Source of the DNA: Candidatus Borrarchaeum weybense
GTDB taxonomy: Archaea > Asgardarchaeota > Sifarchaeia > Borrarchaeales > Borrarchaeaceae
Length of the DNA: 64,000 nucleotides
Assembly (NCBI GenBank): GCA_019057385.1
Contig: JAHQJS010000006.1
Location: 709,038 to 773,037 of the forward strand
Reading direction: 5' to 3'
Shown: positions 7,579-64,000 of the stretch, piece after piece
Layout: each line of letters begins with the position of its first letter
How positions within the stretch are numbered: the stretch's first letter is position 1
Program-made: the position numbers and the translations under genes
Notes under the pieces: model-generated
Seen by the model: only the letters and a program-made list of their open reading frames with translations
Databases searched by the model: none
Told to the model about the DNA's origin: nothing

Positions 7579-8439
7579 ATGTTTGCGGATTGGACGAGTA
7601 GATGGGAAGCGCTTATTACTGATCAAAAGTCAAGAATGTATATCGTGAAGGAAGATGGAAGTTTAGCTGAAGCTGGTGTCAAACAAGAAAATCTGAGTTC
7701 AGGATCTGTAGTTTTGATTGTAGATATTGTTGCTCGTGCAATTTGGATATGGCATGGAAAAGATGTAGGCCCAAAAGACAAATTTATTGGTGCAAGAGCA
7801 GCCAGAGCTCTACGAAGTGTTGTGGGTCCTAAGTTTCGTACTATGTCCCCATTAAGTGAAGGCGAAGAAACTTCAGATTTGTTAAAAGTCTTTGAATCTA
7901 CTGGTGGGATAATGGAAGAACCTTCGGCGCCACCTGTTCAACTTGAAGATGTACCAGAAGACCCCATCATGCCACTTACTCAACTTAAGGAGGACGCTGA
8001 AGACCCTTCAACACCACCCATTCAACTTGAAGAAATATCTCCTCCCATAGAAGAAATTAATGAAGTGACAAATAGCACTCAGACCGATACATCTGTTCAA
8101 CGCGTGACAAAAACTACTGAATCGAAGACTGAGGAAAAGCCTGAGGTTTCTTTATCATCTTTGGATTCCGAAAAAGTACGTGATTTAGCGTCGTTAATTA
8201 TTTCGTATACTTTAAAGCAAATTTATCGAGTTGAACCAATTATAAGTAGAACTAAGACACATGACCTCTTTCGAGTTAGTCAAGAAGGCGTGCAATTGTG
8301 TAAAGTAAAAATACAAATACAAAATACCACTATTAGCGTTTTAGAAGCCGTTTTTGATGAAAAAGAAGAAAAAAACGCATTTTATGAGGATTTAAATGAG
8401 CAACTGCGTCTTATTCAAAAAATAGCTTTAAGTACATGA
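7579..8439 (+). CDS. Gelsolin-domain protein with Pro/Glu linker and unknown C-terminal domain
   Basis: LSSGSVVLIVD..IWIWHGKD..KFIGARAAR..EGEET matches the gelsolin repeat consensus; duplicated motif PS(A/T)PP(V/I)QLE. Confidence 0.75.
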   Translation: MFADWTSRWEALITDQKSRMYIVKEDGSLAEAGVKQENLSSGSVVLIVDIVARAIWIWHGKDVGPKDKFIGARAARALRSVVGPKFRTMSPLSEGEETSDLLKVFESTGGIMEEPSAPPVQLEDVPEDPIMPLTQLKEDAEDPSTPPIQLEEISPPIEEINEVTNSTQTDTSVQRVTKTTESKTEEKPEVSLSSLDSEKVRDLASLIISYTLKQIYRVEPIISRTKTHDLFRVSQEGVQLCKVKIQIQNTTISVLEAVFDEKEEKNAFYEDLNEQLRLIQKIALST

Positions 8440-8521
8440 AACTCCTTTTACCATTTAACCACTATGTACAAGACCATATTTCTTCACTAATTTTTATTCA
8501 TTGATATAAGGAGCATTTGAA

Positions 8522-10090
8522 ATGGAATTTAATGATCTAACAGGCCATAATCAACTATTAAATAGAGTAATTCCAATTATATTTCTACTAATTTTTATAG
8601 GACTTATGATTTTCACATTTCTCTTTGAGACCTATCTTCTTGCATTTTTGATTTTTGGTCCGATAGTTTTCGCATTGGCTTGGTTTTCGTATGGCTACTT
8701 AAGAGTAAGACCATTTCGTATCCCACTTAAACTAATGTTTCTCGTAGGTTACGGAGGAGTTTTTATCATATTCACGGCATTAATTCTCAACCAGCTTGGA
8801 GCCCTTAATGCGATAGTAGGAATTTTGCTCATCGGTACAATAATTGCTCCCGAATTATGGCTTACGGTACTTACTGTTGTAATAGTAGCACCTCTTGTTG
8901 AAGAATTTACTAAAGCGCTTCCTAATATGTTATTCTACTGGTCTAAAGAACAGAGTGTCTCAACTGTAATAAAAGGCGAAAGAAAAGGGCTACTTTATAG
9001 TGAATACAGAGGTTGGTTCTTCGGAATAATGACGGGTGCGATCTTTACAGTCCTGGAAACTTATCTTTATGTCTTTATCAATCTCCCCGCAGTTGGAGTA
9101 ACTGATCTCTTTCAATATTGGTTACAGGTGGTTCTTCGGGGTGGCGCTCCGGTACACATGGGTGGTGCCATGCTGACAGGTTATGCTCTCGGAAAAGCTG
9201 ATCGCTTACGAACAAAAACAAACTCGCGCTTCTCGGCGCTAAAAACGGTTTTCCTGTTCTATATACTAGCAGTCTTGTTACATCTTTCTTGGAATGGATC
9301 AAGCGTGTTGTTTTCCCTAGTACCTAGTGGATTTGTATTTGATATTGCTTCTCTCGTAGTTTTCGCAATTCTTGGTGTTATAGTTTACATTATTGGATTT
9401 AAACTCATGAAAAACAGTTTAGATATAGCCAAAGACTTTTCTAGTTGTGAGAGATGTGATCTAAATTTTCCCTCAGAGTTAGAAAGTTGTCCGCACTGCG
9501 TGAAAAACCTAAAAGTAGTTAAAAAGATGCCTTCTGAAATGGTCTCGTATAAGTTTTGCGAATCCTGCAATGAAAAGTATTCTATAACGGATGACTTTTG
9601 TAAAAAATGCGGTCAAAAACTTTCTTCTAAAAAAGACATAGACACACAATTTGTAGAAAAAAAGCCTCAATTACTAGCAATTTCGACGCTTTTAATGCTG
9701 ATGCTAAATATCTTGTTAGGGTTTGCCCTAGTTCTTGGAGGTTATCTCCTCGTATTATTGGCGGCAACAACAGGTGTTTCTGGGGCTGTTGTGTTGGCAA
9801 GCTTTGCTTTGCTTATCGGTATTCTCTCATTTGCAGGAGTATTGGGCGTATTTTTCCGATGGTATTCAGGTTGGTACATTTCAATACTGTTTGCAATTAC
9901 TATCGCGGCATCTGTTATACTCGTAGCAAGCTTCGGAGTAGGCTACTTAATCATTACAACAGGATTAACGCCTTTAGTTGGTCTTGCACTAGGACTTGGT
10001 GGTTTCGTTGTAGTAGCTATTCTCTTAATTCTCTTCTTCGTCTTCACAAAAGAAGAAGACTTCCTTACAATGCGTTTTAGAGCAATGTGA
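8522..10090 (+). CDS. PrsW-family intramembrane metalloprotease with double Zn-ribbon and extra TM helices
   Basis: APLVEEFTK, conserved H and HLSWNG motifs; four CxxC (CERC/CPHC/CESC/CKKC); four C-terminal TM helices. Confidence 0.8.
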   Translation: MEFNDLTGHNQLLNRVIPIIFLLIFIGLMIFTFLFETYLLAFLIFGPIVFALAWFSYGYLRVRPFRIPLKLMFLVGYGGVFIIFTALILNQLGALNAIVGILLIGTIIAPELWLTVLTVVIVAPLVEEFTKALPNMLFYWSKEQSVSTVIKGERKGLLYSEYRGWFFGIMTGAIFTVLETYLYVFINLPAVGVTDLFQYWLQVVLRGGAPVHMGGAMLTGYALGKADRLRTKTNSRFSALKTVFLFYILAVLLHLSWNGSSVLFSLVPSGFVFDIASLVVFAILGVIVYIIGFKLMKNSLDIAKDFSSCERCDLNFPSELESCPHCVKNLKVVKKMPSEMVSYKFCESCNEKYSITDDFCKKCGQKLSSKKDIDTQFVEKKPQLLAISTLLMLMLNILLGFALVLGGYLLVLLAATTGVSGAVVLASFALLIGILSFAGVLGVFFRWYSGWYISILFAITIAASVILVASFGVGYLIITTGLTPLVGLALGLGGFVVVAILLILFFVFTKEEDFLTMRFRAM

Positions 10091-54028: not shown

Positions 54029-56956
54029 ATGCAAATTAGCGCAAATCTGGCTCAGTATACAAGTTTATTCGTTATTATTTTAGTGATACTTGCTGTGATC
54101 ATTGTTTGGAAGGAAAAATGGATTATTGGAATGGCATTTAGAAATTTCAAACGAAAAAAAGTCAGAAATACGCTGACTGTTATAGGTGTGCTCTTTAGTG
54201 TTGCTATGTTGGTAGGGTTTAATATAGCAAGACAAAATGTGACAAGTACATTTTACAATACTATTGAACTTGCTGCGGGTAAATTAGATCTTGAGGTTAC
54301 GAGAGCTGATGGTGAGCCATTTCCAGAGGACCTAATGCATCTTCTTGACGATATAGATGGCATTGAAGCGTATGCCCCAAGAATTCAGCGTTACTGTGTG
54401 ATTTACGTTCATGATAGCTGGAATTCTACGATGGCTACAGTTATTGGAATAGATCCAACATTGGACCAAGCTTTTGGAGACATCTTTGACATTAATGGAT
54501 CTCAACCAATCAATCACCTAGTAACTGATGGTAATGCAATTGTTTCGGAATCATTAAAGGATGGTATTTCTGGAGAACAAGATGAAAAAATTGTGAATGC
54601 ATCAATAGGAAATAAACTTAACATTAAATACTATCATGATCCACCACGTTCCCGATCCAAAGGATTTAATATTGCTGCTTTTGCGGAAGGTAAGGGAAAA
54701 ATCGCTCAAGTTGGCTATGGGCGTGTTGTCATCGTAACTTTAGATAGTGCTAGACAATTTACCAAAACTTGGCGTAAGATTGACAAAATAATAGTAAATC
54801 TTGAAGAAGAAAGTAGAAAAGATTACAAAGCCGTTATAGCTGATATAGAAGTTAAACTCGGTAAAGATTTCAGAGTTGACGCAGTTAGAGAAAGTTTACT
54901 GGCGGTTGCAGAAGGCGCGGTATCGGGTTTTGACACTGCTTTGAATTGGGCTGGATTAATTACCTTATTGGCGTCTGTATTTCTAGTATTTAATAGCATC
55001 GTGATGACAGTAACAGAAAGGCGTTACGAGTTAGGCATAATGCGTGCTATCGGCATGTCAAAATTTCAGGTGTTTCGTCTAATTTTATATGAGGTAATTA
55101 TTTTAGGTGGAATAGGATCTATTATAGGTTCATTTGGAGGAGTCTTAGTTGCTCATGGAATAACTACTTACGTTTCAAATACAACTGTTTATGGCTTTCG
55201 AGTCATAATAGAGTCTGTTGAGCTAGATCCTTCAATTATTTTTAGTGGTTTTATCATGGGCTTTCTTTTTGCAGTTGGAGGTGCCCTTTTCCCGCTAGGA
55301 TCCGTAGTCACTATGAAAGTCGTTACAGCTTTACATGGTGATTCCCACGAAGCCGGAAAGAGGAAAATTTCCCGTGGATTATTAGTTGGCGGCATTATAT
55401 TAGCTATAGTAGGATTCGGATTACTCTTTATAGCCCCATCGATTCCTGCAGCTAACTTATCTGATTTCTTGTCTATAACGCTCTTATTATGTATCTCTGG
55501 GGTCTCAATAGCGGTCTCAAAATACAATAGAAAAGCAGCCAGTCTTGTCGCAGGGATCGGTCTTACTGCCACTGGAGCACTCATTACAATAACCGCGGTT
55601 TCCTATTTGAGTGAGATCGTTTTACTTGTTGGAAGCATAATTCTCTGCGGATCACTTCTTAGCATTGTATCGCGAGGCTTTTATCGATTATTGAATAGTA
55701 TACCTGCCTTTCGAACAGTTGCTAAAATTGCTAGTAGAAACCTAACACGCCGTCCTCTTCGATCAACTCTTACATTTGGAATTTTCACGATCGCGATCTC
55801 TCTCTCGATCTTATTTGCATCAATTAACTCAGCTGTTGATATAGGTATAACTCATTACATTGAGGAAGGACTCAATATGGACTTAATAGTGACAACAAAT
55901 ACTGGTGCTCCACCAACTCTAGCAGGGAATCTATCACGAATTGAAGGTGTTCATTGGACGAATGACACGCCTACAGAAGAATGGAGACCTGGTGTAAGCG
56001 TAGCTGAACTATCTGGGGCAAAATTTGAAATCTGGGATGAAGGAGAGACCTCTTTATTAGTGGCTGTGAATTCTTCAACCTTTCCTCTTGCTATTGAACA
56101 GGATTTAATCGAGCCTAATCCGAATACGACAGATATCGTTGCCCTCTTTGACCAATTAGGAGGAACAGGAGATAATAAGTGCATCATAAGTGATAGACTT
56201 GCAGAGGAACTTCATGTGAAAGTTGGTCAAAAAACCAAACTTGAAATATCTGCCCATGGAAATTCTACAGAATTTAAAATCATTGGTATTGTACACAATG
56301 ACTTGATTGGTTACCCGAAGGGTGGATATTTCTGCATTATTGATATAGAAAAATACTATGATTTCGGTTTTGATGATGATGTGCATGTTTTTTACGTTAA
56401 ACTTCGAAATCACCATTGGAATGGAACGGTCGTTGATCAAGATAAAGTTGCACAACAGATTCTTGATTTATATGGCGATGAGTATAATCTAAGTATTATA
56501 AAGACAAAAGACATCGTAGAAGAATGGCGGGTGAACGTGACAGAAACTACGCAATTTATGGCTGTTCTTTCATCGTCATCTATCATAATAGCTTTACTTT
56601 GTTTAGCTACAACAATGATACGAATTGTCCAGGAAAGACAACGTGAAATCGGATTGCTTCGCTCTGTTGGATACTACAGATCCGAGATAGTCAAACTCCT
56701 TCTTGGCGAATCATTACTCTTAGCTGTTCTAGGACTATCAGTTGGGATCATAAACGGCTATATTCTGGCTGCAAGCTATCTCCCACATTTCAAGGAAATC
56801 GGTTTCACGCCGTATGAAGTGACATTCGTGTTTCCAGCTCTTCAAACTATTATAGTGGCCATTCTCGGGATAGTCGTTGCGACAGTAGGTACCGCTTTTC
56901 CAGCATACAAAGCACTTCGGATGAGTCCTGCACAAGCTGTACGATATACGGGCTGA
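54029..56956 (+). CDS. ABC transporter permease with two MacB/FtsX halves
   Basis: ERRYELGIMRAIG and ERQREIGLLRSVG; large extracellular domains; no ATPase gene adjacent. Confidence 0.9.
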   Translation: MQISANLAQYTSLFVIILVILAVIIVWKEKWIIGMAFRNFKRKKVRNTLTVIGVLFSVAMLVGFNIARQNVTSTFYNTIELAAGKLDLEVTRADGEPFPEDLMHLLDDIDGIEAYAPRIQRYCVIYVHDSWNSTMATVIGIDPTLDQAFGDIFDINGSQPINHLVTDGNAIVSESLKDGISGEQDEKIVNASIGNKLNIKYYHDPPRSRSKGFNIAAFAEGKGKIAQVGYGRVVIVTLDSARQFTKTWRKIDKIIVNLEEESRKDYKAVIADIEVKLGKDFRVDAVRESLLAVAEGAVSGFDTALNWAGLITLLASVFLVFNSIVMTVTERRYELGIMRAIGMSKFQVFRLILYEVIILGGIGSIIGSFGGVLVAHGITTYVSNTTVYGFRVIIESVELDPSIIFSGFIMGFLFAVGGALFPLGSVVTMKVVTALHGDSHEAGKRKISRGLLVGGIILAIVGFGLLFIAPSIPAANLSDFLSITLLLCISGVSIAVSKYNRKAASLVAGIGLTATGALITITAVSYLSEIVLLVGSIILCGSLLSIVSRGFYRLLNSIPAFRTVAKIASRNLTRRPLRSTLTFGIFTIAISLSILFASINSAVDIGITHYIEEGLNMDLIVTTNTGAPPTLAGNLSRIEGVHWTNDTPTEEWRPGVSVAELSGAKFEIWDEGETSLLVAVNSSTFPLAIEQDLIEPNPNTTDIVALFDQLGGTGDNKCIISDRLAEELHVKVGQKTKLEISAHGNSTEFKIIGIVHNDLIGYPKGGYFCIIDIEKYYDFGFDDDVHVFYVKLRNHHWNGTVVDQDKVAQQILDLYGDEYNLSIIKTKDIVEEWRVNVTETTQFMAVLSSSSIIIALLCLATTMIRIVQERQREIGLLRSVGYYRSEIVKLLLGESLLLAVLGLSVGIINGYILAASYLPHFKEIGFTPYEVTFVFPALQTIIVAILGIVVATVGTAFPAYKALRMSPAQAVRYTG

Positions 56957-57087: not shown

Positions 57088-57579
57088 TTGAATGTCACTT
57101 GTCCAATGTGTGGAGCACAATTCAACTCTCCTGAGGAATTAATAGCTCATGTTAAGAGCGAACATGGCATTGAAATAGATCAAGACTTTATGAAAAACTT
57201 AATGGAAGGAATAGGTACCCTTTTCGCTGATATGTTTAGCGGAAAAAGTGATATGTCTTCTGATGAAGAAGAAGATAATAAAGAGGCCGATCCTAGTTTA
57301 TTTTTTGGAAACATGATGGAGCAGTTGATGAAGACTGTAACTGAAAGCTTACAAAATATTAATACTGATGACACGAACCAAGGCCTACCAAATCCTTTTG
57401 CGATGATGATGAAAAACATGTTTGACCAGGCAATTCAGACTGAACCCGAGTCTAAAGATGAGCCTCCCTCTTCTAGTACAAATGAAGATGATGCTATATT
57501 CAAAGAAAATTCTATAGAAATACCTTTCTCGTCCGATGATGACGAAAAAAAGAAAGATAAAAAAGAAAGTAATGAATGA
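57088..57579 (+). CDS. C2H2 zinc-finger protein with Met-rich and acidic low-complexity tail
   Basis: CPMCGAQFNSPEELIAHVKSEH = C-x2-C-x3-F-x5-L-x2-H-x4-H; segments such as NPFAMMMKNMF. Confidence 0.8.
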   Translation: MNVTCPMCGAQFNSPEELIAHVKSEHGIEIDQDFMKNLMEGIGTLFADMFSGKSDMSSDEEEDNKEADPSLFFGNMMEQLMKTVTESLQNINTDDTNQGLPNPFAMMMKNMFDQAIQTEPESKDEPPSSSTNEDDAIFKENSIEIPFSSDDDEKKKDKKESNE

Positions 57580-57638: not shown

Positions 57639-59285
57639 ATGTCTGACGATTATGAGTTGTGGTTTAATGAAGCCTTCGACAAAGGAGAACTTGGGAATTA
57701 TCGCGGTGCTATTGAACTCTATAAAAAGGTCGTTGAAGCAAAGCCAGATTATCAGGCGGCTTGGTTTAACATGGGGCTCATGTACAGCAATATCGAAGTT
57801 TACGACGAATCAATTGAATGCTACAAGAAGGCGATTGAATTAGATCCAACGGACGGTGCAGCATGGGATAATCTTGGATACGTCTACAACAAGACAGGTG
57901 AGTATGAAGAATCGATCCGTTGTCACAAGGAAGCCATTGAAAAACGACTCCCAAATGCAGCTAATGCTTGGAATAATTTAGGGATAGCGTATCATAACGT
58001 TAACGATTTCAAGAACGCCGAAGATGCTTATAAAAAGGCAATCGAGTTAGACCCTGGTTTTAACTTTCCATATCGTAACATTGCTGACGTTTACATCGAC
58101 AATTCTGAATATCAACTTGCTGAACAGTATTATAAAAAAGCACTAGAAATTGATGAGGAATATGTCTCCGCATGGAATGGTTTGGGAAATGCCTATTGGA
58201 ACCAGAATAATTATGAAGACGCAAAAAAGGCGTATAGAAAAGCAATAGACCTCGATCCAACTTTTAAATTTGCATGGAAGAACATGGGTGATTTACTCGT
58301 CGAACTTGGCGAGAATGATGAAGCAGTTGAGCATTACTTGAAGACTTTGGATTTGGATACGGGTTATATCTCAGCTTTAAATGGGTTAGGCAATGCTTAC
58401 TACAATCATGGAGATTTTGAAAATGCTAAAAAAGCTTACGAGAAAGCATTGGACATAGATCCGAATTATAAGTTCGCGTTACGAAACCTTGGCGATCTCT
58501 TATATGATGAGATAAAGTATCAAGAAGCAATCAGTTATTATGACAAAGCATTAGCCATCGACCCAGATAATGTCGTTATACTGAATTCTTTAGCTAACTG
58601 TTACTATGGCTTAGATCAATTCGCGAAAGCGAGAGAAATCTATGAAAAAGCGTTGGAAATAGATCCAGATTACAAATTTGCGATGGCTAACATTGGTAAT
58701 CTCCTTTACGCACAAGGTAACTACACTGAAGCCTTAGAATACTTCAAGAACGCTATAGAGATAGACCCTGACTACGTATTTGCAATTAATGGCTTAGGAA
58801 ACACTTATCTTGAACTTGGTGAGTATAAAAAGGCTAGTGAAAGTTATCAGAGACTCCTCGACAACAATCCAGAAGATGAAGACGGACTCATTAATATGGG
58901 AGTCGTTCATAGTCGTTTGGGAGAGTATTCTAAATCAATTGAATATTATTCAAAACTTATCGATCTCAAAGAAGCTAAAGAAAGGAGTCCTCCCAGATTA
59001 GTCATAAAAAATCTGGCTCTTTCCTATGAAAGTCTTGGAGAATTGAATAAGGCAGCAGAGTCTTACCAAAAAATAATCTATCTTTGGCCATCAGACGCGG
59101 AGGGCCATTATGATCTTGGAATGATCTATAAAAAAATGGGTGAGGATAAGAAAGCAGAAGATGCCTTCACTAATGCCTTAGAGTTTGACCCGGAAACATA
59201 TGAATCGAAAATACGAAATGAAGGTTTAAGTCCAGAAGAAATTCTAGGCAGACAATTGTTGATGAACTTCCAAACTAAAAAATAG
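57639..59285 (+). CDS. TPR-repeat protein (about 14 repeats)
   Basis: 34-aa periodic W/L..LG..Y..A..Y.KAIE.DP. Confidence 0.95.
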   Translation: MSDDYELWFNEAFDKGELGNYRGAIELYKKVVEAKPDYQAAWFNMGLMYSNIEVYDESIECYKKAIELDPTDGAAWDNLGYVYNKTGEYEESIRCHKEAIEKRLPNAANAWNNLGIAYHNVNDFKNAEDAYKKAIELDPGFNFPYRNIADVYIDNSEYQLAEQYYKKALEIDEEYVSAWNGLGNAYWNQNNYEDAKKAYRKAIDLDPTFKFAWKNMGDLLVELGENDEAVEHYLKTLDLDTGYISALNGLGNAYYNHGDFENAKKAYEKALDIDPNYKFALRNLGDLLYDEIKYQEAISYYDKALAIDPDNVVILNSLANCYYGLDQFAKAREIYEKALEIDPDYKFAMANIGNLLYAQGNYTEALEYFKNAIEIDPDYVFAINGLGNTYLELGEYKKASESYQRLLDNNPEDEDGLINMGVVHSRLGEYSKSIEYYSKLIDLKEAKERSPPRLVIKNLALSYESLGELNKAAESYQKIIYLWPSDAEGHYDLGMIYKKMGEDKKAEDAFTNALEFDPETYESKIRNEGLSPEEILGRQLLMNFQTKK

Positions 59286-59851: not shown

Positions 59852-60601
59852 ATGGGTAAAATCGATGGATGCGAACTGTGTGATGCCTATGATGATTGCC
59901 TCCATGATAAGGTAGTTAATAATGTTGTTAATCATAAAATCTTTCAGGATGAATGGAAAACAGTTTATAAGTCAATGATGCCATCAAAAGTGTTGAGTTT
60001 TTTAAGAGCTCAGGAGAAAGCACTACGGAAAAAAAATGAGGATGAATTTGGCAAATTTGACTCCCATAAGTTACGTGTGTGTATTTTTATCAATGCGCTA
60101 GGTGCATGGCCAGGAAAGAAGATAAGCAATACCCTCAGAAACTCTTTGATAAAGGAAGTACAAAAAGCAGTAGACTTTATCCCAACACTTGAAACTCAAT
60201 TAGATGATTCAACCGTAAAAACCCTCGTAGACTTGAAAAATCATCAGAAAAAACAAGAGTTATATCAACAAGAAGAAACTGTACAACGTCTTTTACAAAC
60301 TTCTAAAACCCTTAGAGAAAATTCTAAAACAAATCTTGGTGCGAGGTATGAGATTAACCGAGAAATCTCAGAATATTTAAAAGAAGTGCAATATGCAAGT
60401 CCACAAGTAGCAGAATATTTTCTTGAGGAAGGAAATGATTGGTACAATTTAGCTCAAACCTCTGAGGCAAAATGGGTTGAAGCATCAATGGAATGGATTG
60501 AAATAGCGAAACTTATTTTTAATCGACTGGAATGGACTCAAGAAGTTGAAAAATGTGAAAAAATAATCTATCATCTCAAAAATTTGCCCAGTAGTGGTTG
60601 A
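59852..60601 (+). CDS. Helical hypothetical protein with N-terminal Cys cluster and TPR-like C-terminus
   Basis: CELC..C; AEYFLEEGNDWY..IEIAKLIFNRL..EVEKCEKII. Confidence 0.7.
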   Translation: MGKIDGCELCDAYDDCLHDKVVNNVVNHKIFQDEWKTVYKSMMPSKVLSFLRAQEKALRKKNEDEFGKFDSHKLRVCIFINALGAWPGKKISNTLRNSLIKEVQKAVDFIPTLETQLDDSTVKTLVDLKNHQKKQELYQQEETVQRLLQTSKTLRENSKTNLGARYEINREISEYLKEVQYASPQVAEYFLEEGNDWYNLAQTSEAKWVEASMEWIEIAKLIFNRLEWTQEVEKCEKIIYHLKNLPSSG

Positions 60602-60651: not shown

Positions 60652-60891
60652 ATGAAAGAGATGTCAGAAAAACAGATTCTGGAAGAGAAGATAAAACGTC
60701 TACTTAAATTATCACGAGAAGCTATGAGTCTTAGTTCAGAAATATTTAGGGATGTTGTCGCCCCTAAGAATGTTCTTCAAAAGTTTACTGAAGTAGTAAA
60801 CGGAATAGGACTTGCCACTAAAATTCTAACAGGTCAAAAAATCGAACTTCCAAAAGAATTTCTTGAAAAGAAGAAAATTGAGGTGGAATAA
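60652..60891 (+). CDS. Small helical protein, paralog A
   Basis: MSEKQILEEKIKRLLKLSREAMSLSSEI. Confidence 0.7.
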   Translation: MKEMSEKQILEEKIKRLLKLSREAMSLSSEIFRDVVAPKNVLQKFTEVVNGIGLATKILTGQKIELPKEFLEKKKIEVE

Positions 60892-61092
60892 TTGTCTGAG
60901 CAAGAGTTGAACGAAAAACTCAAGAAGTTAATGGGCCTCTCCAAAGAAATCGTGGGGCTCACTGGAGAAATAGCAAAAGATTTAGCAGATGTAGCTCGTA
61001 AAGAAGCAGCAAAAACGCTGGAAGAGATTATGGTTGGCATTAAAAAGACAATGGATACTCTAAGTAAAAAGCCCGATAAACCTCCAGGCTAA
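60892..61092 (+). CDS. Small helical protein, paralog B
   Basis: MSEQELNEKLKKLMGLSKEIVGLTGEI; GAGGTG SD; abuts paralog A. Confidence 0.7.
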   Translation: MSEQELNEKLKKLMGLSKEIVGLTGEIAKDLADVARKEAAKTLEEIMVGIKKTMDTLSKKPDKPPG

Positions 61093-61227
61093 TCTAAATT
61101 CCCCTTATTTTTTTAAATTTAGTTAATTCATTTGCTTTTGAATCCATTAAAAGAACTTTTTTTAAGCATGTGTAGACTACATCTAATAGTGTAGAGCATA
61201 GACATTATAATTTTTTGAGGATTAAAA

Positions 61228-64000
61228 ATGGGAGTAGACGAAAGAAGCGCAAGTTTTGAATCCGCGCAATGTGTTCATTTACAAGACAAACCTTACATTA
61301 ATGAAGATTTTTTCAAGTGTGGAGTTATTCACGAGCTGTTACCTTCAGAGAGGGTTGATGGACTTTGCCAAACGAAGATTTGGAGAAAATGTGAGTATAT
61401 TTATGATCCTACGCGAGCTTGGAAAGAAGGGAAATGGCGTGACGTAGTTGGGCTTGATGTTGTAAAGCGAGAACTTGTTCAAAAAGTTCAGCACCCGCTC
61501 TTGTTTTATAAAAAATATTCAACTACTGGCGTATTACCCCAAAAGGTTATACTGCTTTTTGGGCCAGATGGTTGTGGTAAAGCTCGTTTATCCAAGGTTT
61601 TAGCTCATGAAAGTGGAGCCCATTTAGAAACACTTATTCCAAGAGAAATAGATCGATTAAAAACACTTGTTGAAGAAGCTAAAGAGCCTACGATAATATT
61701 CCTTGATGAAGTTGACATGGTTGCACAACCAGTCGAATACTTCCAACAGAGATCCTTGCCACTAGCACGCGATCCTGTATTGGTCCTGATGGACAGTATA
61801 GAAACATTAGACGAAACTAATAACCCTGTCGCACTAATTATGGCGACAGACCACCCAAAGTTAATCTTACGAACTTTACTTAAACAAGATTACATACCGG
61901 AGATTATGTATGTTCCACCACCTACTCTTCAAGAACGTGAGGAAATCATAAGGAAGTTTCTAAAGAGTCGTCCTCTTAAAGACGTTGATTTTAGCCGATT
62001 AGCTGAACTTACCAGAGATTTTTCAATTTTAGATATTAAGAAGTTCATTAGAAACTTAGAGCTTGAATGGCTAGAACGATCATTTAAAGAGCCGCAACCT
62101 GTCGAAATAACGATGTCGCAACTTCTACGACAGATCAAAGACGTCGTCCCCTCGCTGTCAAACGCCCTAATATCCCAATATGAGCAAGCAGCAAAACGTT
62201 GGGGTGCCATGGAAGAAGAATTACGGAGAAAACGTGAGAAAAAACTGACTTGGGAAGATGTCGGAGGTTATATTGAAGTCAAAGAACAATTAAAAGATAT
62301 TGTTGCTGTATTAGAGGAAGCTAACGAAACTGTTTCTCAATATAATTTGAAACCCCCTTCTGGAATCATTCTTTATGGGCCTCCTGGTTGCGGAAAAACG
62401 TATATAGCTAACGTATTAGCATCTGTCACAAAGGCGAACTTTCATACTGTAACTGCGGGCTCACTTTTGTCTAAATGGTATGGAGAAGCAGAACAAAATA
62501 TTACTGAGTTATTTGCGACAGCAAAAGTTGATCCACCAAGCATTATTTTCTTTGATGAATTGGAGGGATTATTTCAAACTAGGGGTGAAGCATCCCCAGT
62601 TCACAGTAGAATCGTTTCTGTGTTCCTTCAAGAACTCTCGAACTTAACCCCAGAAGATAGAGTCATTGTGATTGGCGCTACAAATAGACCACAAGACGTG
62701 GACATGGCATTTTTACGTCCTAGACGATTTGATGAATTAATTGGCATAGGACTTCCAGATCTTGAAGCGAGGAAGGCGATTTTCAAAGTTCATACGAAGG
62801 ATATGCCATTAACTGATGACATTGACCTCAACTTGTTAGCAGAGAAAACAGAGATGTTTACAGGAGCCGAAATTGCATTTATTTGTGATACGGCACGAAA
62901 AGCTGTTGCTAAAGAAGCTTTGAAGTCAGGATTTAGAAAAATAAAGATGGAAGACTTCGTCCAGCAGATCATTCAAGCCAAGCCGGGATTAACTGAAGAC
63001 GATGTGAGGCTGTTTAATGAAGCACAAGAAAGGTTCGGTAGGCGAAAATATGCTCCAAAGAAGAAAATAATTGAGAAGGAAAAAGAACTGAGTTGGAAAG
63101 ATGTTGGCGGTTACGCAGACGTAAAAGATTATATGAAAAACCTTGTGAAGATCCTAGAGTCAGAAGAATTGTTTGAAAAGTACGGACTCAAGCCCCCGAA
63201 AGGTTTACTCTTATATGGTCCTCCTGGCTGCGGTAAAAGTTACCTTTCAAAAGTTTTAGCTGCTGAAACTGATGCCAATTTTAAAGTTATTTCAGCAGGT
63301 ATAATGATGAGCAAGTTTTATGGTGAAACAGAGAAACAAATCCATGACTTATTCGTCCAGGCACGAAGAAACCCACCAACAATTCTGTTTTTTGACGAGT
63401 TAGAAGGTCTTTTTGTGCGAAGAGAAGCCATAGGAACAGGTTTTTCAGGTCATAAAACAGCAGTCTCTACATTACTAACCGAACTGAGCGAATTAAAAGC
63501 AGAAGATCGTGTATTAGTTATAGGCGCAACTAACAGACCTCAAGATATAGACCCTGCCTTTCTAAGACCAGGACGCTTTGATGAAAGGATTGGTATAGGA
63601 CCGCCTGACTTAACAGCACGGAAAGCAATCTTTGAAGTCCATGTAAGAGGTATGCCTTTGGCTAAAGATGTAGATTTCGATTTTTTAGCATTAAAGACCG
63701 AAAAATACACGGGAGCGGAAATTGAGTATATTTGCAATCAAACCAGAAGAAAGGTTGCTATAGAAGCTCTAAAATCAGGATTTCGAGAAGTAAAGATGGA
63801 AGATTTTCTTAATCAGCTTGAAGTTACAAAATCAGGCTTGTCACAAGAAGACATTCGACTATATGAAGAAGCACAGGAACGATTTGAAAGACAATTAATA
63901 TCTATAAGCAAGCAGAAGGTCTGGGAAGATGTCACTTTTGAGCAAATAGGCGGTTTATCAGAAGTTAAGGAGTTTCTGAAGAATTATGTAGGTTTTTTGG
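61228..64000 (+). CDS. CDC48-clade AAA+ ATPase with three complete AAA modules and the start of a fourth (3' end beyond the window)
   Basis: Hand-translated 924 codons with no stop from ATG 61228. Walker A at 61561 (GPDGCGKA), 62377 (GPPGCGKT) and 63217 (GPPGCGKS). A fourth module opens with VTFEQIGGL at 63931. Confidence 0.92.
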   Translation, partial: MGVDERSASFESAQCVHLQDKPYINEDFFKCGVIHELLPSERVDGLCQTKIWRKCEYIYDPTRAWKEGKWRDVVGLDVVKRELVQKVQHPLLFYKKYSTTGVLPQKVILLFGPDGCGKARLSKVLAHESGAHLETLIPREIDRLKTLVEEAKEPTIIFLDEVDMVAQPVEYFQQRSLPLARDPVLVLMDSIETLDETNNPVALIMATDHPKLILRTLLKQDYIPEIMYVPPPTLQEREEIIRKFLKSRPLKDVDFSRLAELTRDFSILDIKKFIRNLELEWLERSFKEPQPVEITMSQLLRQIKDVVPSLSNALISQYEQAAKRWGAMEEELRRKREKKLTWEDVGGYIEVKEQLKDIVAVLEEANETVSQYNLKPPSGIILYGPPGCGKTYIANVLASVTKANFHTVTAGSLLSKWYGEAEQNITELFATAKVDPPSIIFFDELEGLFQTRGEASPVHSRIVSVFLQELSNLTPEDRVIVIGATNRPQDVDMAFLRPRRFDELIGIGLPDLEARKAIFKVHTKDMPLTDDIDLNLLAEKTEMFTGAEIAFICDTARKAVAKEALKSGFRKIKMEDFVQQIIQAKPGLTEDDVRLFNEAQERFGRRKYAPKKKIIEKEKELSWKDVGGYADVKDYMKNLVKILESEELFEKYGLKPPKGLLLYGPPGCGKSYLSKVLAAETDANFKVISAGIMMSKFYGETEKQIHDLFVQARRNPPTILFFDELEGLFVRREAIGTGFSGHKTAVSTLLTELSELKAEDRVLVIGATNRPQDIDPAFLRPGRFDERIGIGPPDLTARKAIFEVHVRGMPLAKDVDFDFLALKTEKYTGAEIEYICNQTRRKVAIEALKSGFREVKMEDFLNQLEVTKSGLSQEDIRLYEEAQERFERQLISISKQKVWEDVTFEQIGGLSEVKEFLKNYVGFL

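Follow-up and report, generated by a model that had tools for sequence, protein, structure and literature searches.

The question raised by this locus is how many AAA modules are carried by the ATPase gene at its downstream end, how they arose, and what kind of machine such a chain would build. The window, by which we mean the whole 64,000-nucleotide stretch of Candidatus Borrarchaeum weybense DNA that was analysed (contig JAHQJS010000006.1, positions 709,038 to 773,037), ends within the gene: the ATG lies at position 61228 of the forward strand and the frame is uninterrupted to the window end at 64000. Retrieval of the adjacent genome sequence adds 734 bases and carries the ORF through the fourth Walker A to a stop codon at 64732–64734, giving a protein of 1168 residues in which the fourth AAA module is whole. 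A preliminary description, made from the letters of the window, had proposed at least four tandem modules; the completed chain contains exactly four PF00004 modules and none further. The motifs which it had placed at the module starts, WRDVVG (residue 70, nt 61435), WEDVGG (residue 342, nt 62251), WKDVGG (residue 623, nt 63094) and FEQIGG (residue 904, nt 63937), agree with the translation to the base, and the spacing of the last three is exactly 281 residues as described. Pfam resolves PF00004 into four distinct stretches and AAA_lid_3 into three, which is far beyond chance, and the PF00004 score of the protein, 342.6 bits (cut-off 21.2), places it in the classic AAA clade; matches to AAA_5 cover P-loop stretches only.

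Judged by its motifs, the chain is laid out as a four-cysteine N-terminal segment, an inactive D1, active D2 and D3 modules, an inactive D4 and a flexible tail. The N-terminal segment (residues 1–69, 61228–61434, forward strand as for all features below) has no match to a known family in Pfam, its Atlas feature score of 0.82 is below the noise mark, and AlphaFold2 (AF2) models it with low confidence (pLDDT 33–59). Its cysteines Cys15, Cys31, Cys47 and Cys55 are conserved without exception across 19 sequences whose overall identity is just 37–45%, and metal binding by the segment is plausible. Neither PF02359 nor PF02933, the double-psi barrel and β-clam of the CDC48 N-domain, is matched at E ≤ 0.01, in line with the earlier view that a short four-Cys segment stands in place of a double-psi N-domain. 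D1 (residues 70–341, 61435–62250) is degenerate, as had been noticed: its Walker A reads GPDGCGKA, with Ala for Thr, pore loop 1 is deleted, leaving no K-[WFY]-x-G, Asp stands at the position of the sensor-1 Asn, and neither Arg finger remains, nor does the R-x-x-R-F-D motif, while the Walker B DE is retained.

Complete motif sets are found in D2 (residues 342–622, 62251–63093; GPPGCGKT, SKWYG, FFDELE, GATNRP and RPRRFD, with key residues K390, pore-loop W417-Y418, D443-E444, N486 and R497/R500) and D3 (residues 623–903, 63094–63936; GPPGCGKS, SKFYG, FFDELE, GATNRP and RPGRFD, with K670, F697-Y698, D723-E724, N769 and R780/R783). The second region of homology, with its sensor-1 Asn and two Arg fingers, and the aromatic pore-1 loop occur in these two modules only, which accordingly look active, as first proposed. 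Degeneracy is not limited to D1, the one module to which it had been ascribed. D4 (residues 904–1168), which begins at 63937, leaves the window at 64000 and ends at 64731, keeps an intact Walker A (GPPGCGKT) and has LDDLE at Walker B; the catalytic Glu, sensor-1 Asn, Arg fingers and a canonical pore loop are all absent, so that by its motifs D4 should at most bind nucleotide. In an AF2 whole-chain model, calculated from a 19-row alignment, the modules fold with pLDDT 70–90 at an overall pTM of 0.37, and the tail of D4 is unstructured.

Origin of the second active module

D2 and D3 share 56.5% of residues and 60% of nucleotides, with synonymous sites saturated, compared to 26–31% residue identity for the other module pairs. 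Three further assemblies from the genus carry orthologues of the whole gene at 86–93% identity; the same four-module frame occurs in G004 (93%) and G003 (87%), and likewise in the ENA, JGI and NCBI metagenome clusters P0003–P0007. These independent assemblies, and the mere 60% DNA identity of the repeat, exclude the assembly error that the preliminary description had already thought unlikely. Selection is purifying throughout (dN/dS 0.03–0.17 in every part; 0.03–0.07 in D1, 0.06–0.08 in D2) and acts on both D2 and D3, leaving practically no chance that the extra module is an artefact of repeat collapse or expansion, or of a false fusion in gene calling.

Other Asgard lineages have a three-module family, 873–890 residues long with a dead-active-dead arrangement. 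It shares with the window protein the Cys4 segment, a dead D1, an active middle and a hydrolysis-dead last module, as well as the C-terminal Hb-Tyr-X tail and the adjoining X and TPR genes discussed below, and is collinear with it over the whole length at 37–54% identity. The window protein differs in having four modules where the family has exactly three, the extra one being a second active module of 281 residues, and in a D1 Walker A without Ser/Thr. A profile of the N-terminal segment and D1 scores members at 324–524 bits and the best non-member at 161 bits; with 473 bits, the window's gene falls among the proteins defined by a Cys4 segment and degenerate D1. Such proteins were present in 8 of the 400 Asgard genomes searched. 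The four-module form was confined there to the window's genus (four of its five genomes), unlike the three-module form, found in three other genera of the same set and in several metagenomic lineages.

Aligning the chain with 14 three-module relatives leaves a single clean gap of 281 residues, equal to one module. In module trees the four-module D1 groups with the three-module D1 (100% support), D4 with the three-module D3 (99%), and D2 and D3 with the three-module D2 in one clade (100%). The internal duplication of D2 and D3, first suspected from their close similarity, is thus borne out by their identity, by the gap in the relatives and by the per-domain phylogeny, and from these sequence comparisons the four-module form appears to derive from the three-module Asgard family by tandem duplication of its one active 281-residue module. 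If instead the four-module form were ancestral and the three-module proteins had lost an active module, one of D2 and D3 might be expected to pair with the three-module D2, and approximately unbiased (AU) tests do retain trees that join D3 (p 0.26) or D2 (p 0.16) to it. The best trees nevertheless make D2 and D3 sisters (support 92 in a quick tree, 80/74 in a careful one) and the three-module D2 a group of its own (88 and 90/93, respectively), D2 and D3 are closer to each other (56%) than either is to the three-module D2 (51–52%), and the four-module form occupies one genus against at least three genera and metagenomic lineages for the shorter one. We therefore consider the reversed direction improbable.

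Relation to characterised AAA proteins

The chain had been called CDC48-like, a term that holds for the clade and fails for the family. Its score against the CDC48 model TIGR01243 is 648.2 bits, below the cut-off of 802.65, compared to 1083.5 and 1112 bits for the two true CDC48 proteins of the same genome. In the module tree the CDC48 modules fall into two clades, one of D1 (99%) and one of D2 (85). The active modules of the present family lie outside both in a separate clade with 100% support, which a weak node (84) links to a Vps4-like protein and a further multi-AAA protein. The four-module protein is therefore outside the CDC48 family. Archaeal Cdc48/VAT and eukaryotic p97/Cdc48 (PDB: 5g4f, 5vc7, 5c18 and 7lmy, among others) are still its best sequence and fold matches, sharing the classic-clade h-W-x-D-h-G-G start, the two-Arg second region of homology, the aromatic pore loop and the inter-module spacing, with archaeal Cdc48 also sharing the Hb-Tyr-X C-terminus; they differ in their double-psi barrel and β-clam and in having two modules rather than four.

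NSF with α-SNAP, and PEX1/PEX6, resemble the proposed machine in pairing a motor ring with an assembly ring that is hydrolysis-dead, and in having an N-terminally placed adaptor of TPR-like helical repeats; they have two modules, other N-domains and no Hb-Tyr-X tail. PAN, AMA and other proteasomal ATPases of the Hb-Tyr-X type have in common a flexible [hydrophobic]-Tyr-X tail, classic AAA modules and a host organism with a 20S proteasome, and are set apart by a single AAA module and by coiled-coil/OB (PAN) or other N-domains. Identity with PAN was considered and rejected: the TIGR01242 and NF003069 scores of 553–567 bits exceed 500 only by summing four to five stretches over four modules, the Pfam matches include no OB or coiled-coil N-domain, and the genome has a real PAN elsewhere (L009). 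Dynein, midasin/Rea1 and RNF213 likewise carry several AAA modules per chain, some degenerate. They belong to a different AAA+ clade, however, with six modules forming one planar single-chain ring and no pore-loop translocation of polypeptides, and membership of the dynein/midasin type was rejected because there are four modules, not six, and the neighbours of the active modules have no Arg fingers.

The statement that CDC48/p97, NSF and PEX1/6 have two modules is correct for the proteins that have been studied; metagenomes, by contrast, hold classic-type AAA proteins with three to six modules, as found in our database search. In a limited full-text search of the literature, no publication describing three or four AAA modules in a classic-clade protein came up. 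The three-module Asgard family is uncharacterised and is annotated in databases merely as 'AAA family ATPase'. An interest for eukaryogenesis, raised in the preliminary description, found no backing: with 8 of 400 Asgard genomes the family is rare and lineage-restricted, neither database searches nor module trees revealed a specific affinity to eukaryotic families, and it has no bearing on how eukaryotic Cdc48, NSF or 19S arose.

Ring geometry

Two arrangements of the chain had been suggested, a ring of four or more tiers and a covalently linked pseudo-hexamer. As nothing follows the fourth module, the "or more" of the first falls away, and a stack of four rings is the arrangement that we favour. 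Our working model, the likeliest reading as a whole and a little more probable than not, is an unfoldase built as a hexameric stack in which two structural rings enclose two motor rings, with X/TPR as its cofactor and the 20S proteasome as its docking partner. Six chains would assemble as a homohexamer whose four rings are stacked along a single axial channel. The N-terminal segment, together with the dead D1 ring, would provide the surface on which the X/TPR cofactor docks and hands over substrates, and D2 and D3 would act as consecutive motor rings whose aromatic pore loops pull the polypeptide through, their sites completed by Arg fingers of the neighbouring chain in the same ring. D4 would be a hydrolysis-dead ring holding the hexamer together, comparable to NSF-D2 or p97-D1, and its C-terminal tails would insert into the α-ring pockets of the 20S proteasome, so that the unfolded substrate is degraded. 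The additional motor ring may provide more pulling force or grip than that of a one-motor ancestor.

Arg fingers act in trans in AAA+ proteins. Since the catalytic elements and the Arg fingers are confined to the same module type, active sites could be completed only in homotypic rings. Residues 338–898 align unbroken to p97 residues 199–754, so that module spacing and linker length match those of p97 D1-D2. Were the modules of one chain instead to lie side by side in a plane, as those of dynein and midasin do, a pseudo-hexamer would take two chains of the three-module form, and three chains of the four-module form would give twelve positions. The arithmetic of three modules in two chains suits six positions, and the AF2 monomer model, with its pTM of 0.37 and a Foldseek match to p97 that spans two modules at 35 Å rmsd, speaks neither for nor against stacking. 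In such a ring an active D2 would nonetheless depend on D1 or the last module for its Arg fingers, which both of these lack in all 19 sequences, and D2's own fingers would point into dead sites; four modules cannot tile a six-fold ring, the spacing is collinear with p97 D1-D2, and the solved multi-module members of the classic clade, as far as is known, all stack. The distribution of motifs over the modules thus disfavours the covalent pseudo-hexamer, and we regard any planar arrangement as very improbable.

Partner genes and the C-terminal tail

Upstream of the ATPase lies gene X (59852–60601, 249 residues), single copy in the genome and all-helical, with 13 helices in its AF2 model. At all eight multi-AAA loci an X profile matches a neighbour of the multi-AAA gene, the X domain being free-standing or, in three of the eight, fused behind TPRs. 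X belongs to no Pfam family; nine X members compared leniently with Pfam gave neither SNAP nor any common family, and hence no sequence relation to SNAP, and Foldseek against the PDB returned nothing at E ≤ 0.001. Residues 111–249 adopt a TPR-like fold in the model, matched by generic TPR or designed helical repeats at Z ≤ 11.7, a maximum below the Z of about 13 that helical repeats reach unspecifically. Sec17/α-SNAP is among these look-alikes at an unspecific Z of 9.2, and the best Atlas score for X is 0.79, the SNAP/TPR cluster at 0.77 being a lead only. X is a family-specific helical-repeat partner of the multi-AAA gene. All loci examined also have TPR genes adjoining the ATPase gene. In the window the TPR gene (57639–59285, 548 residues with 14 TPR_1 stretches) lies two genes upstream of the ATPase, and its product is likely to belong to the same gene module. 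That link is drawn from adjacency and the TPR-X fusions because no sequence orthology was found among the TPR genes: the best matches of the G148 and G150 TPR proteins in the window's genome are other TPR genes, not the ATPase's neighbour.

A predicted complex of the N-terminal segment and D1 with X scored 0.33, compared to 0.00 for the best of three controls. Of the 80 solved complexes used for calibration 58 pass the mark, and of the 110 mismatched pairs 2 do; passes at scores of 0.60 or below account for 7 of the 80 and for both mismatches, so that by this calibration such a pass is likelier to be false than true where the guess was not already probable. At least 51% of contacts recur between the runs, the partner pLDDT is at least 70, and the prediction weakly suggests that X may bind the segment and D1.

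The C-terminus, L-Y-S, matches the Hb-Tyr-X pattern [LVIMGAPFYW][FY]x (Forouzan et al. 2012, PMC3493965). Among full-length members, elsewhere just 37–45% identical, 17 of 18 close in this way behind a tail of variable sequence, as do the copies in G005, G148 and G150; one family member ends YIG. Only 1.3% of ORFs in the window's genome end in this way, among them, of its AAA proteins, PAN (FYA) and one CDC48 (FYR), and the genome has six proteasome subunit genes. In M. mazei each AAA protein with an Hb-Tyr-X end activated 20S and those without did not (PMC3493965).

Having PAN and an Hb-Tyr-X CDC48 already, the proteasome of this genome would not need a further cap. The tail, ending QDLYS, we take to be close to the p97 C-terminus, and eukaryotic p97 uses its C-terminal LYG to bind cofactor domains, such as PUB and PUL, and not 20S. 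TPR domains, for their part, clamp the C-terminal peptides of Hsp70, Hsp90 and Hsp104, and by analogy the TPR partner could equally bind the Hb-Tyr-X tail. The same ring stack might therefore work as a free-standing segregase or disaggregase, the tail being a ligand of the TPR/X cofactor and no 20S cap. The TPR genes and TPR-like X that flank the gene in all loci would fit such a role; against it, the Hb-Tyr-X end predicted 20S activation in archaeal AAA proteins wherever tested (PMC3493965), and the predicted complex tentatively put X at the other end of the chain, on the N-terminal segment and D1. We rate this reading as rather unlikely.

In its fullest form the stacked model is a four-tier AAA+ machine of 24 modules per hexamer (∼790 kDa, 6 × 1168 residues), loaded by X as a dedicated TPR-like cofactor of a new family, feeding 20S directly and, as a proteasome cap, of separate Asgard origin from PAN, Cdc48 and eukaryotic 19S, a combination that we put forward tentatively, its chances being somewhat short of even. 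If it holds, a motor gained a ring through a single module duplication. To our knowledge, the classic-clade AAA unfoldases studied so far all have one or two rings; the present family would offer natural three- and four-ring versions whose sole difference in module content is one active module. Evolution would thereby have run a clean experiment on how an extra motor ring and dead rings affect unfolding force, processivity and assembly. Should the tail dock on 20S, it would represent a further type of Asgard proteasome cap with an adaptor of its own (X/TPR), and the network of archaeal proteasomal ATPases would be wider than known.

Between gene X and the ATPase lies a 79-residue ORF (60652–60891), which has no Pfam match, is absent from the loci of other genera and occurs within the genus, where its counterpart in assembly G004 is 86% identical.

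Anatomy of the four-module ATPase

The ATPase reading frame opens with an ATG at window position 61228, meets no stop before the window ends and, read onward in the source genome (4.18 Mb, 8 contigs; locus L005), closes at window coordinate 64734 to give a protein of 1168 residues. Pfam assigns it four PF00004 and three AAA_lid_3 stretches, so the chain holds exactly four modules (D1–D4): the preliminary description, which had proposed at least four, was right about these and none lies beyond. Translation places the module starts and the motifs quoted for them precisely where that description had put them (residues 70, 342, 623 and 904, the last three spaced by 281 aa). A 336-nt gap (60892–61227) separates a 79-aa ORF from the start codon, and the gene therefore probably has its own promoter.

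D2 and D3, said to look active, contain all Walker, sensor, pore-loop and Arg-finger residues (K390, W417-Y418, E444, N486 and R497/R500 in D2; K670, F697-Y698, E724, N769 and R780/R783 in D3). D1 is degenerate, as had been noted, with GPDGCGKA, LDEVD, an eight-residue deletion at the site of pore loop 1, TDHP in place of TNRP and no Arg fingers. D4, which had been out of view, has also lost hydrolysis motifs: its P-loop GPPGCGKT is intact, Walker B is LDDLE, and the sensor-1 Asn, Arg fingers and canonical pore loop are missing. Judged by these motifs, the layout is dead-active-active-dead. In the window's genome only, D4 carries GMEYIMPVIEYILPV at L005:4395-4440 (aa 1044-1051, past the window end), whereas the orthologues from two other assemblies of the genus, G004 and G003, have GIPEVLKNLNRIEYILPV at that place. 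The altered stretch lies in frame at the site of the lost Arg-finger region, shows a net loss of 9 nt relative to those orthologues and is a near-copy of the 21 nt that come after it (GAGTATATCATGCCTGT / GAATATATCTTGCCTGT).

The first 69 residues contain Cys15, Cys31, Cys47 and Cys55, and Pfam finds no CDC48 N-domain family in the protein, in agreement with the proposed replacement of that domain by a four-Cys segment. The ATPase reaches 648 bits on the CDC48 model, below the cut-off of 802.65; the two real CDC48 genes of the genome score 1083 and 1112. In the module tree the active modules of the ATPase fall in neither the CDC48 D1 nor the D2 clade. The label 'CDC48-like' is therefore valid for the classic clade only, not for the family. 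Among proteins of solved structure, the nearest in sequence are p97, VAT, Cdc48, Afg2/SPATA5 and NVL/Rix7; the genome also has a true PAN gene and a Vps4/CdvC-like one.

Relatives and origin of the extra module

D2 and D3 are 56.5% identical, against 26–31% for every other module pair. An assembly artefact, already thought improbable, is ruled out by recurrence of the four-module frame in independent assemblies (G004, 93%; G003, 87%), and the two modules share only 60% of nucleotides, with synonymous sites saturated. Between orthologues dN/dS is 0.03–0.17 in the N-terminal segment (N), all four modules and the tail, so the 'dead' modules are kept by selection.

A search of 5.8 billion proteins returned four-module homologues of 1172–1178 aa (83–92% identity; ENA, JGI and NCBI metagenomes; best label 'Promethearchaeota archaeon'), followed by proteins of 873–890 aa (37–43% identity) in MAGs of Helarchaeota, Lokiarchaeota and Promethearchaeota, with the layout Cys4-dead-active-dead. 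Long and short proteins align collinearly from end to end apart from one active 281-aa unit, missing from the shorter ones. The whole family amounts to two entries among 1.84 billion 50%-identity representatives, and an N+D1 profile (members 324–524 bits, non-members at most 161) detects it in 8 of 400 Asgard genomes, the four-module form in 4 of the 5 genomes of the window's genus and the three-module form in three other genera. A tree of 89 modules, including those of four-module (Q) and three-module (T) proteins, groups Q-D1 with T-D1 (100%), Q-D4 with T-D3 (99%), and Q-D2, Q-D3 and T-D2 together (100%), with Q-D2 and Q-D3 as sisters (92), bearing out the suggested internal duplication. The sister relation persists in a more careful phylogeny of the active modules (80/74); AU tests on these modules did not reject alternative groupings. 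Most parsimoniously, the active module would have been duplicated in tandem on the stem of a single genus; the opposite order, with the four-module form first, is unlikely. This four-module layout of a classic AAA unfoldase, unstudied so far, originates from the three-module family, and the two forms, one active module apart, provide a natural, experimentally testable comparison. The suggested link to eukaryogenesis is not supported.

More than two classic-type modules also occur outside this family in metagenome matches; none such was found in the searchable literature. Among the best 150 representatives, 17 have three modules, five have four, six have five and two have six. Other multi-module hits were two complete CDC48 units fused head-to-tail (P0022, 1685 aa), a CDC48 of 1000 aa that has its N-domain and two copies of D1 (P0023), a protein of 1249 aa whose three modules resemble one another (P0025) and FtsH-like proteins of ~1150–1210 aa with three AAA modules then an M41 peptidase (P0027 and P0034, one labelled Acidimicrobiales). 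Seven proteins of 1563–2124 aa (P0141, P0146, P0149, P0157, P0175, P0193, P0204) carry five or six AAA-type modules each; Walker A and B are present in most, and a crude pattern search found the Arg-finger motif in none.

A conserved partner and its neighbourhood

Upstream of the ATPase gene lies X (59852–60601), an all-helical 249-aa protein of no family, present in one copy in the genome, whose C-terminal half resembles a TPR-type solenoid, though no specific match emerged. In each of the eight loci examined, an X profile places the domain next to the multi-AAA gene. It stands alone in the window's genome, in G004, in the further Asgard genomes G005 and G150 and in a Lokiarchaeota contig, and is fused behind TPRs at both loci within the Asgard genome G148 and in a Helarchaeota contig. 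TPR genes adjoin all loci; their orthology is not demonstrable from sequence. Complex prediction of N+D1 with X scored 0.33, weakly supporting contact (at least 51% of contacts agreeing between runs, partner pLDDT at least 70), against 0.00 for the best of three controls; of 80 solved complexes 58 attained the score mark, as did 2 of 110 mismatched pairs, and with scores at or below 0.60 only 7 of the 80 did so, along with both mismatches.

The two G148 cassettes, each a TPR-X fusion with a three-module AAA gene (L054:1230-5587, L055:6332-10727), are paralogous (ATPases 70% and TPR-X proteins 50% identical), each followed by a related 188–206 aa gene of no known family. On the Lokiarchaeota contig (GCA_011365055.1; L058:4053-4982, 7638-9407) X and the three-module AAA gene are separated by a gene for a 309-aa Arf/Rag-family small GTPase, which lies 19 nt upstream of the AAA gene. 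Genes for a 276-aa TPR protein and a 305-aa HEAT-repeat protein converge on the 3' end of the AAA gene. In the window, a 163-aa protein (57088–57579, + strand), 77% conserved in G004, directly precedes the TPR gene, its N-terminus giving one weak C2H2-type zinc-finger match (E 8e-5, under the Pfam cut-off); positions 54029–56956 (+ strand) encode an FtsX/MacB-type permease (975 aa; two FtsX and two MacB_PCD stretches), and the G004 contig starts inside the homologue of this gene.

Putative ring assembly and proteasome docking

Arg fingers work in trans, and in 19 of 19 sequences they are restricted to modules with complete Walker and sensor motifs, so an active site could be completed only by the equivalent module of a neighbouring chain. 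This distribution, together with module spacing collinear with p97 D1-D2, points to a homohexamer of four stacked rings, one of the two arrangements first considered; the other, a planar pseudo-hexamer, is at odds with the motif pattern and highly improbable. The AF2 monomer model (pTM 0.37; 35 Å rmsd to p97 over two modules) speaks neither for nor against stacking. In the stacked hexamer, N+D1 would be a platform for a cofactor, D2 and D3 two motors in series, and D4 an assembly ring carrying docking tails.

The tail, predicted to be unstructured, ends in hydrophobic-Tyr-X in 17 of 18 full-length members (LYS, FYS, FYG, YYG, YYA, LYG, IYS, PYS), an ending that additional genome copies share, while the sequence ahead of it varies in length and composition. 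Only 1.3% of ORFs in the genome end this way, PAN and one CDC48 among its AAA proteins. In M. mazei the 20S proteasome is activated by exactly those AAA proteins that bear this motif (Forouzan et al., PMC3493965), from which we infer that the ATPase tail may likewise dock on 20S. In the main rival, which is less likely, the stack is the same and the ligand of the tail is the TPR/X cofactor rather than the 20S. A proteasome cap with its own adaptor is possible and would be new, adding to the interest of the system. Six proteasome subunit genes (PF00227) are present in the genome, to our knowledge more than is usual for archaea; three are open frames of 250–254 aa (L014, L015, L017) and three of 206–233 aa (L016, L018, L019), lengths that may correspond to three alpha paralogues and three beta ones.
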